The position numbers and the translations under genes were made by a program. A stretch of 64,000 nt of DNA from a virus, in the IMG/VR virus record IMGVR_UViG_3300013126_000012, positions 64,001-128,000 of that record; one strand, 5' to 3'. Below are positions 12,083 to 19,435 of the stretch, piece after piece (within the stretch, counting starts at the first letter, position 1; each line of letters opens with the position of its first letter). The notes under the pieces were generated by a model. It saw only the letters and a list, made by a program, of their open reading frames with translations, searched no databases and was not told the origin of the DNA.

Positions 12083-12120
12083 TACATTACTCCTATGATT
12101 TTTTTATTATAAATATATTG

Positions 12121-12566: not shown

Positions 12567-14306
12567 TTATATTTCTGTCCAATCATTAGATGGTCTAAAT
12601 TTCATAATCCATTCATCTGCTCCGCCACTATTCCAATAACAGTGTCCTACAATTCTAACATATCCTGATGCAGGTACGGTCGTGTCCATTGTGGTTCCAG
12701 AACCTGATTTGATGTATATTGGAAGGCCGTAACCTGCACTATCGACTATAGGATATGACCCTCCAATCGTTGACACTACTACATCACCTTCTATTATAAC
12801 AGAACCAGTTTGTGAAAATATGTTTTTAGCTATTCCTAGCATTTTTGTTGAAGAGTCTGTAGTTTGATCTACTTGATACCATTGACCGTCTGTGTTTAAA
12901 TAAACCAAATCATTATCGACAACATTTACATCAAAATACGACTCCCCTAGAATTTGTCCAGCATAGTTGTTAAATCCAAACAAAGTGACTCGCGTAGCTT
13001 CACTAACGTTTTGTTGATTGTACAAATATGTTTCATATGTTCCCGAAAAACCTCCCCAACCCAATGCATCTACACCAGCTGCATTTAATAATGTTCTATT
13101 TCCAAAATCTATACTAGCGCTAGCACCCTGGAATGGTGATCCATATAATTTGCGTTCATAGTTTATATCATCTACTTTGATAGCATCATATGGACCTACG
13201 TCAGGAGTAAATGGTGGAAAACCTGGAATTAAATCTCCTCGTACAATGAATGACCCAGATTCTATAATTACACCTGATTGCCAATTAAGTACCGGGTATT
13301 CACTACCGTTTTTAAGTTGTCGAGTACCCCAATCTATAGAAGTTCTAATTCCGGTAGAATCGACAGTCCATCGATTTTGCCAATTTACTGAATCATTCGA
13401 ACCCGTATCTCGTAATAATCCATCGCCCCAATCAACTGTGTAATCGCTGGAGCCGTTGTCAAATTTGAGTTGTCGGGTATTCCAATCAACGGATTGCGAT
13501 GCATTTGCATCATACATGCTTCGTAAAACACCCCACCGTACTGAAAAATTTCCATCGGAATCAAACAATGTTCTGCTATCCCAATTCACAGAATCTTCAG
13601 TACTACCAGGCATAGGACCAGAACCAATCAATATTTTATTGGTACCATCGATGCTGTCTAAAACACTAAATGATCCAGTTACTCCCAATGAGCCGCTAAT
13701 TTGCGCATCACCGGTAAATGGAAATGGGTTTCCGCCGGGCGCCCATGATGCCGATGTTGCAAACGATGCGGTGCCTGTGAATGTTGCGTTTTGCCAATCT
13801 AATATAATATTGCCATTGTTATCTGTTAACTGCCGCGAATTCCAATCAACGGCAATTTCATCAGCAGTTGGTATTGGTCCAGGGCCATAAAGATATCTAT
13901 TTTCCCAATCTACATAAGTTACCCCTGACGAATTTGCTAAAGTGCGTTGTTCCCAATCAACACTTGGAGTTGCTGCACCATCGGACAATGTTCTACCATC
14001 AGCATCAATGCTGCTAGTACCCATTACATCGTATATGGTTCTAGAAAAATCACTAATTGATATAGCAGGAACATAATTTGCTCCATCAAATGTTTGTGTA
14101 CTAAATGAACCAGTTACTCCTAATGAGCCTGTAATCTCCGCACTTCCGGAGTATGGAAATGCAGGTGTACTTGGAGCATATGACGCAGATAAAGCTTGTG
14201 TTGCGTATGATGCAGTACCTAATAAACTTCCAGTTATGCTTGGAGCATACAATGAATTTAACGTGGCATCAGAGCCAGACGTTATGATCTTTTTCCATGA
14301 CGGCAT
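12567..14306 (-). CDS. Tail fibre-like repeat protein
   Basis: Two FP(Y/F)xGxAxIxGSLGVTGSFS modules, each followed by ~16 aa (S/T)VDW..R.L.D repeats; N-terminus paralogous to 14581-15411. Confidence 0.65.
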   Translation of the reverse strand: MPSWKKIITSGSDATLNSLYAPSITGSLLGTASYATQALSASYAPSTPAFPYSGSAEITGSLGVTGSFSTQTFDGANYVPAISISDFSRTIYDVMGTSSIDADGRTLSDGAATPSVDWEQRTLANSSGVTYVDWENRYLYGPGPIPTADEIAVDWNSRQLTDNNGNIILDWQNATFTGTASFATSASWAPGGNPFPFTGDAQISGSLGVTGSFSVLDSIDGTNKILIGSGPMPGSTEDSVNWDSRTLFDSDGNFSVRWGVLRSMYDANASQSVDWNTRQLKFDNGSSDYTVDWGDGLLRDTGSNDSVNWQNRWTVDSTGIRTSIDWGTRQLKNGSEYPVLNWQSGVIIESGSFIVRGDLIPGFPPFTPDVGPYDAIKVDDINYERKLYGSPFQGASASIDFGNRTLLNAAGVDALGWGGFSGTYETYLYNQQNVSEATRVTLFGFNNYAGQILGESYFDVNVVDNDLVYLNTDGQWYQVDQTTDSSTKMLGIAKNIFSQTGSVIIEGDVVVSTIGGSYPIVDSAGYGLPIYIKSGSGTTMDTTVPASGYVRIVGHCYWNSGGADEWIMKFRPSNDWTEI

Positions 14307-14321
14307 ATCGTTTTCCTTTTG

Positions 14322-14383
14322 TGCTGCGGTTGGTTACATACACTTATGCCGTGCGTGTGCCCACTTCCTTGCGGCCTACAACA
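14322..14383 (-). ncRNA. Candidate structured cis-regulatory RNA in the fibre gene 5' UTR
   Basis: 62 nt, ~55% GC (34/62), between the late promoter and the RBS; closing stem, GCAA tetraloop hairpin and a long inner stem. Confidence 0.55.
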
Positions 14384-14396
14384 TTTATAATAAATA

Positions 14397-14573
14397 TCAT
14401 TGTTTTAGATATTGTTCTTGCAATTTCAATATGATATTGTAGAATGTTTCTACTTGTTCTCCACGAATAGACACATCTTTAAGCAGCATCAACAAAAATT
14501 CAATTTCTTGTTTTGATAATTGTGATGCTGTTTGTGTTTCTGCTTTTGATTTTAATTTGTCAATTATGCTCAT
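14397..14573 (-). CDS. Small helical protein, possible fibre chaperone
   Basis: Start moved to ATG 14573 (MSIIDKLK) to avoid overlap with the upstream gene; lies between two paralogous fibre-like genes. Confidence 0.6.
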   Translation of the reverse strand: MSIIDKLKSKAETQTASQLSKQEIEFLLMLLKDVSIRGEQVETFYNIILKLQEQYLKQ

Positions 14574-14580
14574 AACTTTT

Positions 14581-15411
14581 TTAAGAATAAATGTAAATAT
14601 CTCCACTCAATGTATCAACATGAATTGTTCCATATCCATTGCCTGAGCCACCATATATTGGAGCCGGAGATGGTGCGGCTGTGCTTGTTTCTACTGCTCC
14701 TGCATATACCGACGGGGTGAATGAATTGCCCGTGGCATCGAATGATGAAGTAAAGCCCCATCGCGTAGTACCAGAATCATATCCATACAATTCACCAATG
14801 TTTTGAGTACCTTGTTGTACAACAATACCACCATCTCCTGCAGTATTAGATCCAGATGCAAACAATACAAACCGATCTGCAACAAGCAAGTTTGCAGTGT
14901 TTTGAAATGATGCAGTACCTAATACAACCAAATTACCCGTCAATGTTAATCCAACAAACGAAGGAGAATCTGTTGTTTCTAATCCTAAATCGATTGTCGA
15001 CCCAGCTACGCCATTTGTTGTTAATAAAGCCTGACCCTGTCCTGGGCTAGATAACACTGATGCAGATACTACTGTACTACCTGCTAATATTTGTGTTTGA
15101 GTTACGCTACCACCTAATGATGTTGCATTACCTGCAATTGTTATAGATGAATTTGCTAAACTACCATTTGGAATACTACCTAATGTAAATGTAATCGTAT
15201 CTGAACCGGCATTTCCTGAAATATCTAATCCTGCGCCAGACGAAGATGCAAATGTTAATGTATCTACTGCACTATCTGCTAATACATTCGTGCCGTTAAT
15301 AGACATCGTAGCAAATGTATTTTGTGCAGTTATTGATGTTAAATAACCAGCATCATTATTTAATTGAGAAATATTACTTCCCGATACTACTACTTTTTTC
15401 CAAGTTGCCAT
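14581..15411 (-). CDS. Fibre-like structural protein
   Basis: MATWKKVVVSGS start paralogous to MPSWKKIITSGS; Gly/Ser/Thr-rich; late promoter upstream. Confidence 0.65.
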   Translation of the reverse strand: MATWKKVVVSGSNISQLNNDAGYLTSITAQNTFATMSINGTNVLADSAVDTLTFASSSGAGLDISGNAGSDTITFTLGSIPNGSLANSSITIAGNATSLGGSVTQTQILAGSTVVSASVLSSPGQGQALLTTNGVAGSTIDLGLETTDSPSFVGLTLTGNLVVLGTASFQNTANLLVADRFVLFASGSNTAGDGGIVVQQGTQNIGELYGYDSGTTRWGFTSSFDATGNSFTPSVYAGAVETSTAAPSPAPIYGGSGNGYGTIHVDTLSGDIYIYS

Positions 15412-15443
15412 TGTTATGTTCCTATTTTATATAAATATAAGCA

Positions 15444-18743: not shown

Positions 18744-18769
18744 TGATATATTCCTTTTTCATATAAATA

Positions 18770-19435
18770 TCAATACGTTTCATTTAGAAGTTTTAAAATT
18801 TCATTTAATGATTCGTGTCGATGATTATCTAATAATATTATTTCATTAACATACTGTGATTTTGTTAATTTAGGTACTTCGTGCACAGCTGAATCATTTG
18901 AGAATTTTAAATCTATTTGATAACGATCTCCCGTTAATATCATGATACTATCTTTACCTAAACGAGATACAACCATTTGAAGTTGTTGTTTAGTTAAATT
19001 TTGGAATTCATCTACGATACAAACAGCATGATCGAAAGTCCGACCTCGGAAATGTGCTAAAGAAACTAATTCAATGTGTTCTTCTCGTTCCAATTTATCT
19101 AATATATCCGGTTTATTATAAACTTTACGCATATTGCTACGTAAAGGAACTAACCATGGATCCATTTTTTCTGCTAAAGACCCGGGAAGAAATCCGTTAT
19201 CTTCATTTGATACTGTAGGCCGTGTTATGATAATTTTATTTATTTTTCTTTTAAAAAACATATCCAATGCAACTTGAACTGCTAACAATGTTTTACCAGA
19301 TCCAGCTTTACCTAAAATAAAATTAAATGGTGTTTCTATAATTTTTGATTTGGCTCGTTTTTGTTCTTGAGACAATGTTATTGAAAATTTAATGTCATTT
19401 TTTGGTGGAGTTTTTTCTCGATTTTGCGTAGTCAT
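18770..19435 (-). CDS. phoH: PhoH-like ATPase
   Basis: GKAGSGKT, ITRP, GFLPG, RGRTF, DEFQN, GD..QID. Confidence 0.95.
   Translation of the reverse strand: MTTQNREKTPPKNDIKFSITLSQEQKRAKSKIIETPFNFILGKAGSGKTLLAVQVALDMFFKRKINKIIITRPTVSNEDNGFLPGSLAEKMDPWLVPLRSNMRKVYNKPDILDKLEREEHIELVSLAHFRGRTFDHAVCIVDEFQNLTKQQLQMVVSRLGKDSIMILTGDRYQIDLKFSNDSAVHEVPKLTKSQYVNEIILLDNHRHESLNEILKLLNETY

Follow-up and report, generated by a model that had tools for sequence, protein, structure and literature searches.

The window, by which we mean the whole stretch of 64,000 nucleotides analysed here, belongs to a phage record of 159.6 kb that has terminal repeats; the stretch is present in lake and freshwater metagenomes, and the closest cultured relatives of the phage are the 160-kb Flavobacterium phages vB_FspM_immuto. 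Two paralogous fibre-like genes lie on its minus strand, with the gene of a small helical protein between them and a folded RNA element in the leader of the downstream fibre gene (Table 1). The latter, gene B (ATG at 14306-14304), encodes a protein beginning with MPSWKKIITSGS; its homologue in Flavobacterium phage immuto carries the annotation putative tail fiber-like protein, and there the element lies 8 nt ahead of the start. Searches of Pfam, PHROG and PDB with the gene B protein gave no match, and its first 150 residues yielded weak leads, namely, the T4 gp9/10 N-terminal domain (0.81) and gp37_trimer (14% of cluster). The upstream paralogue, gene A, is assigned by PHROG to virion structural proteins, and its N-terminal module is the same as that of the 579-aa fibre. 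The small protein is a helical hairpin in the AF2 model (pLDDT 83), and no name could be obtained for it from PHROG, Pfam, PDB folds or the atlas; a fibre chaperone or a partner of the RNA element are possible roles.

Table 1. Genes, RNA helices and signals at the fibre locus, in window coordinates
Feature	Position	Strand	Remarks
Fibre-like gene B	12567..14306	-	579 aa, MPSWKK..SGS N-terminus; gene served by the element
Start-codon region	14300..14307	-	able to pair with the P3 loop
Shine-Dalgarno-like AAGGA	14314..14318	-	3 nt downstream of P1, outside P1
RNA element	14322..14383	-	62 nt; three-way junction of P1, P2 and P3; MFE fold and covariance model
P1, 3' strand	14322..14329	-	ends 15 nt before the ATG
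J3/1 junction strand	14330	-	single invariant A
P3 arm	14331..14363	-	UGG/CCA base, two-base bulge 14334-14335, wobble G14360-U14336, long variable stem
P3 apical segment	14345..14352	-	8 nt complementary to the start-codon region
J2/3 junction strand	14364..14366	-	AAG, invariant
P2 hairpin	14367..14374	-	GCAA tetraloop
P1, 5' strand	14375..14383	-	six pairs, bulged A at 14377, then two G-C pairs
Late-promoter-like motif ATATTTAT	14390..14397	-	6 nt upstream of the first P1 base
Small helical protein	14397..14573	-	58 aa; stop codon directly next to the promoter motif; belongs to the conserved module
Fibre-like gene A	14581..15411	-	276 aa, paralogous to gene B, begins MATWKKVVVSGS; 19-nt AT-rich leader without the element

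The leader of gene B, measured from the promoter motif to the ATG, comprises 83 nt with a GC content of 0.47, compared to 5-57 nt and 0.00-0.30 in the leaders of about 20 other ORFs of the window that follow the same motif, and thus it does stand out as GC-rich against AT-rich intergenic DNA, as claimed in an earlier reading made from the sequence only. The sequence quoted in that reading and the three-way junction drawn on it were located in the gene B leader, and the junction coincides with both the minimum free energy (MFE) and the centroid fold of the 62-mer (-17.1 kcal/mol); the U tract that the reading had reported missing is indeed absent after the element. The folding energy of the 62-mer equals the mean of dinucleotide shuffles (z = 0.01), 95 out of 200 shuffles folding equally well or better, and the values for the element with flanks (z = -0.55 and -0.07) and for the opposite strand (z = +0.23) are similar in size. 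Hence the fold alone is no more than chance would give, and thermodynamics proves nothing here; it is conservation and covariation in many other phages that raise the element above chance. The covariance model R1, described below, scores the window copy at 49.4 bits (E 1e-13, span 14320-14385), and this is its single match in the 159.6-kb phage genome, where no repeats of the element were found.

Homologous leaders were collected in three ways. For the first set, homologues of the fibre protein were sought in IMG/VR, and the 160 nt preceding each of them were inspected; the second was obtained with a loose pattern of both constant RNA words; and the third, blind to the RNA, with a pattern of only the first six codons of the gene. 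At least about 130 distinct elements were recovered upstream of MP[S/N]WKK..SGS fibre genes, in both freshwater and marine phage contigs. The homologous leaders share one layout. A closing stem, rich in A-U but with two G-C pairs and a single bulged base, encloses, from 5' to 3', a hairpin that in most cases has a GNRA loop, a purine-rich word that is constant, a second hairpin whose sequence is free, and another constant word, about 10 nt long.

RNAalifold, applied to 66 MAFFT-aligned sequences, predicts the same three helices as those of the sequence-only reading, with double changes in 11 out of 18 pairs. Pairs were also counted on a trimmed MAFFT alignment fitted to no structure: here 95.2% of cells are paired, vs 83.9% after column shuffling and 24-52% with partners displaced by 1-3 columns, and 142 cells carry double changes; in paired percentage, covariation score and double-change counts alike, none out of 500 shuffles came up to the real alignment. 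In the alignment of 98 matches to model R1, 97 of them distinct, 95.5% of cells are paired (n = 97), with 239 double-change cells and double changes in 13 out of 18 pairs, all of these being counts of sequences and not of evolutionary events; the occurrence of four or five pair types at several positions means that more than a single inherited event is involved. G-U cells outnumber A-C cells by 167 to 12, or by 82 to 10 if the core wobble pair is excluded, so that the folded strand is the sense strand of the gene, in agreement with the initial observation that the G-U pairs work on the drawn strand only. The interior length of P3 (8-26 nt) and the length of P2 (8 to about 24 nt) vary continuously, and, since the arm lengths differ by non-multiples of three, the region is not coding. 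The hand-drawn junction has thus turned out to be the consensus of a large family with abundant compensatory changes in homologous leaders, and we regard it as practically certain that the element is a genuine structured RNA, both conserved and strand-specific.

The three helices differ in how they vary. P1 is weak, A-U-rich and has a one-base bulge; throughout the family, 94.6% of its cells are paired, and double changes are seen in seven out of eight pairs. P2, stacked on P1 without a linker, is present in every member, and its third pair covaries (C-G in 57 sequences, U-A in 18, U-G in five). In P3, pairs 44-67 and 45-66 show four to five pair types each, and the middle pair of the base, G40-C73, is kept as G-C by 76 sequences and replaced by A-U in the other 21, each of which also has U instead of A71, the second bulge base; this coupled change of a pair and a bulge suggests a base triple at the P3 base. 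The AAG of J2/3, the A of J3/1 and several flanking pairs are the same in 97 out of 97 sequences, including the RNA-blind sample. The G of the core wobble is replaced by A in 11 sequences, where the U is kept or replaced by C, or else the bulge base becomes G. The junction linkers are 0, 3 and 1 nt long, which we take to place the element in the junction class where the third helix folds back along the first one. Together, the core (AAG, the single A and the G-U wobble) and the covarying triple point to a specific tertiary fold or a binding site.

The association with the fibre gene is also specific. Model R1 has one match per contig in 98 contigs (932 kb in total). Among the matches listed in the loose-pattern scan, 45 out of 100 loci are true R1 hits (E <= 1e-13), and the other 55 give nothing up to E 0.01; all 45 true hits among the matches listed are upstream of an MP[S/N]W[K/R]K..SGS gene, in two cases with a homing-endonuclease ORF in between. 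Viewed from the protein side, most MP.WKK genes among the matches listed have the element, and those without it are typically the paralogue one or two genes upstream on the same contig. The gene downstream of the element is hypervariable in length, from 67 to more than 1700 aa. In nearly every locus (about 115 loci), the ORF directly upstream of the element belongs to a single family of small proteins of 50-100 aa with a common core of about 40 residues, and therefore the conserved unit consists of the small protein, the RNA and the fibre; fibre A, the small protein, the element and fibre B follow one another in this order also in contigs L037, L039, L040, L145 and L290.

Outside phage contigs, a word-pattern scan of bacterial sequences (120 matches) retrieved a single true element, in a 14.9-kb contig of a Candidatus Pelagibacter metagenome-assembled genome (MAG). 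This contig (L191 / L355) has the element together with the small protein and a fibre gene of 1018 aa, and is probably of phage origin and was binned with the MAG by accident; in that case, its host label is uninformative on host range. A search of 132 bacterial genomes of one order with R1 found no element; a 26.8-bit partial match in this set was rejected on inspection as GC-rich coding DNA. Among cultured phages, the immuto phages alone carry the element according to blastn and tblastn; a match in Synechococcus phage BUCT-ZZ01 falls within tRNA-like sequence and is not recognized by the model.

The two insertions mentioned above occur after fibre codon 3: an 81-aa HNH homing-endonuclease ORF in L051:1553-1795 (-) and a 241-aa GIY-YIG-like one in L134:10525-11247 (-). 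Both borrow the first codons of the fibre (MPN or MSN), and the fibre takes a new Shine-Dalgarno word and start from their 3' ends. The conserved DNA at the 5' end of the fibre coding sequences is thus a homing site, and, with an endonuclease gene between element and fibre in two contigs, adjacency to the fibre start is not indispensable. In the L051 fibre downstream of the HNH ORF, nearly identical repeats, each about 22 residues long (GSLFGT.SWAYSSSQALTASYG-type), follow one another, which suggests a repetitive shaft.

The motif upstream of P1 is overrepresented in the window, with 34 copies of ATATTTAT (e.g., at 12109-12116, 15431-15438 and 18763-18770 (-)) vs 20 expected, 27 of the copies being on the coding strand; about 20 copies precede an ORF start by no more than 60 nt, and most of these by no more than 30 nt. 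The sequence after the motif is usually (A/T)(A/T)AAA, and, judging by its placement, the motif is probably the late promoter of this phage group. In the family, the gap between the ATATTTAT motif and the top of P1 peaks at 13 nt, and, in about 70% of members, 4-10 nt separate the end of the promoter-like motif from P1; about 25% have no promoter motif, and there the stop codon of the small ORF abuts P1. If the motif acts like T4-type late promoters, its position shortly before P1 would make the junction the very 5' end of the transcript. In contigs L063, L075, L079 and L344, a G+C-rich hairpin with a U run, resembling a terminator, precedes the promoter-like motif and the element, so that the fibre gene there looks like a transcription unit of its own.

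On its other side, the element is closely spaced from the start codon: the distance from the 3' end of P1 to the AUG has a median of 11 nt (range 6-24) in the family. Words like the AAGGA of gene B are found in the other late leaders of the window as well. In most members without the promoter motif, the outer pairs of the P1 3' strand are themselves a strong Shine-Dalgarno word; in this subgroup, the two G's of the word are paired within P1, and the P1 5' strand is altered at two positions with pairing kept.

The element exists in three forms, compact (the majority), long-P2 and long-P3, the window copy belonging to the last. In the window, the P3 apical segment and the start-codon region can form an 8-nt helix (14352-14345 with 14307-14300) that is present in the nested MFE structure of a longer leader. 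All long-P3 members have a 5-6-nt word in the P3 loop complementary to the AUG and the next two bases, often including the preceding base, and 22 out of 27 long-P2 members have an apical P2 loop that is complementary, over at least 5 nt, to the start-codon UG plus the Pro codon, compared to two out of 63 compact members with such an anti-start loop word. Overall, anti-start words are present in 31 out of 97 sequences vs 5.9 +/- 2.2 in loop shuffles, and, being confined to two subgroups, they stand for about two independent events. The linker to the AUG is longer in long-arm members (median 17-22 nt vs 15). The AUGCC target is invariant and so can give no covariation signal; at the one flanking position that could covary, the loop base preceding the anti-start word does not change with the third Pro codon base (C with A 11 times, C with G four times). 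The possibility that the 3' core word pairs with the Ser/Asn-Trp codons was also considered and rejected, as the third codon base varies without compensation, and no mutually exclusive terminator and antiterminator were found for the element.

The sequence-only reading had not matched the element to any known family, and the Rfam scan proposed there led to the same result: with Rfam 15 (4227 models), the whole window has no match at gathering thresholds. In permissive Rfam scans of the window copy and two other members, we obtained noise (at most 16.7 bits, with thresholds at 50-376), and the glutamine riboswitch model RF01739 found nothing in the whole phage genome at E <= 10. Of the self-cleaving ribozymes (hammerhead, hairpin, twister, pistol, hatchet), there is only a trace of the hairpin ribozyme, covering part of one arm (12.7 bits, E 2.3). 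A full-text literature search retrieved no description of the element. The family is thus uncatalogued in Rfam and in the literature searched.

The position of P1, the Shine-Dalgarno word inside P1 in one subgroup and the anti-start loops support, but do not prove, a cis-regulatory role in translation; the structure overlaps or adjoins the ribosome-binding region, as expected of a translational operator. Taking all this into account, we consider it moderately probable that the element is a new cis-acting structured RNA, in the leaders of one class of tail-fibre (receptor-binding-type) genes, that controls translation initiation. The junction would then be a folded sensor or scaffold for initiation on the fibre mRNA, with the base of P1 situated where the ribosome must bind and, where P2 or P3 is lengthened, the apical loop of that arm closing over the AUG. 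In this folded state, the RNA would hold the initiation region closed or crowded, and translation would be held down. The invariant core may be a binding site or a rigid scaffold. The fibre level could be set by a factor on the invariant junction, either a phage protein or a small molecule, or, alternatively, by ribosomes that terminate on the small upstream ORF and melt P1. By constant co-occurrence, the candidate binding proteins are the N-terminal module of the fibre and the small upstream protein; no recognizable RNA-binding fold was found in either of them. As fibre A shares the N-terminal module and has a plain leader, the element would set the amount of fibre B relative to fibre A.

Several other explanations have to be weighed against such control of initiation. 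A metabolite or second-messenger riboswitch, where a small molecule would bind the invariant junction, stabilize P1 and thereby switch fibre translation, has the anatomy of the element in its favour: a conserved, covarying, aptamer-like structure, a compact junction whose unpaired bases do not vary, a weak helix beside the ribosome site that could act as the switch, and variable putative expression platforms around a constant core are all features usual for translational riboswitches of the purine and TPP classes. We nevertheless consider it unlikely, because the controlled gene always encodes a structural fibre-like protein, not a transporter or an enzyme, so that the gene context suggests no ligand; in addition, the element is absent from the bacterial genomes searched, no riboswitch model matches it, and only about six conserved unpaired bases would be available for a pocket. 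Phage-borne riboswitches as such do exist, e.g., the glutamine riboswitches that occur in marine myophages (PMC9004378).

An element acting at the level of the mRNA itself, i.e., protecting the late fibre transcript from decay as a 5'-terminal structure, providing a processing site, or trimming the leader as a small self-cleaving ribozyme, seems quite unlikely to us. In about 70% of members, the predicted transcription start coincides with the first P1 nucleotide to within a few bases, and the two endonuclease-bearing contigs, which keep the element at the head of the transcript, fit this explanation at least as well as a translational role; small ribozymes are, moreover, common in phages, and have junctions with invariant cores. 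However, in the quarter or so of members that follow an ORF with no promoter motif, the element would be internal to the transcript, a protective hairpin needs neither an invariant junction nor anti-start loops, no ribozyme model matches, and the hammerhead core words are absent.

Processive antitermination of the HK022 put type, allowing read-through of a long fibre operon, is in our view very unlikely. The element does lie immediately downstream of the promoter-like motif in most members, and it still heads the transcript where a homing-endonuclease gene has been inserted, but antitermination leaves the tight spacing from the start codon and the start-complementary loops unexplained, members without an adjacent promoter exist, and the other late operons of the same phage have no such element. 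Finally, a DNA-level signal, such as a recombination or homing boundary of the fibre cassette or a hairpin site in single-stranded DNA, is barely credible despite the location of the element at the 5' edge of a hypervariable gene with homing endonucleases inserted a few codons away, as a homology arm would conserve sequence, while here the helices change sequence with pairing kept, the wobble pairs are strand-specific (see the G-U and A-C counts above), and the endonuclease insertions are in coding DNA outside the element.

We also see a small but real chance that the junction is a true sensor, i.e., a new class of riboswitch or a structured stand-in for the Shine-Dalgarno word docking on a host or phage-modified ribosome, and that it sets the amount of the second fibre late in infection. 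If so, an intracellular signal would determine the fibre make-up of the progeny, and hence host range, with the fibre A paralogue being constitutive.

To our knowledge, structured regulatory RNAs are rare in the leaders of phage structural genes, and we know of none tied to receptor-binding proteins. The comparative support for the element is strong and of the kind that preceded validated riboswitches and ribozymes. The element marks a conserved module of three parts, namely, the small helical protein, the RNA and a fibre whose N-terminal adaptor is shared, next to which lies a paralogous fibre without the RNA. If the RNA tunes or switches the expression of one fibre, this bears on virion composition and host range in phages of Bacteroidota-type hosts, and also on the control of translation where Shine-Dalgarno pairing is weak. 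The presence of the element in the cultured Flavobacterium phage immuto makes it testable at the bench. At minimum, it is a new family for RNA databases and should improve the annotation of such genomes.

Among the known systems, the glutamine riboswitch (RF01739) is, like the element, a small three-stem RNA of aquatic phages, and the purine-rich core word of this glnA RNA presumably resembles the 5' core word of the element; it differs in that it was absent even from the permissive scans of the three members. The hammerhead ribozyme shares with the element a three-way junction, linkers of 3 nt and 1 nt, an invariant core and frequent occurrence in phages, but the element, with P1 and P2 abutting without a linker, has no 7-nt CUGANGA strand, and there is no Rfam hit. 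HK022 put, two stem-loops acting on RNA polymerase, is likewise a cis-acting folded RNA directly behind a phage promoter; nothing in put, however, relates to a start codon.

The aptamers of purine and TPP riboswitches resemble the element in architecture, with short unequal linkers, a weak P1 whose 3' strand abuts the ribosome site, and a constant core surrounded by variable peripheries. In contrast to them, the element has no Rfam match and no metabolic gene context, and is restricted to phages. The translational operators of T4, i.e., the gene 32 leader pseudoknot and the RegA and gp43 operators, are located in phage mRNA leaders and repress by occluding initiation. The element is similar to them in being a structured leader beside a phage start codon with a possible protein partner, which may include the product of the gene itself. 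It has no sequence or structural similarity to these operators, being a three-way junction with an invariant core, and, unlike them, it is found in many unrelated-looking phage contigs and always on the fibre gene.
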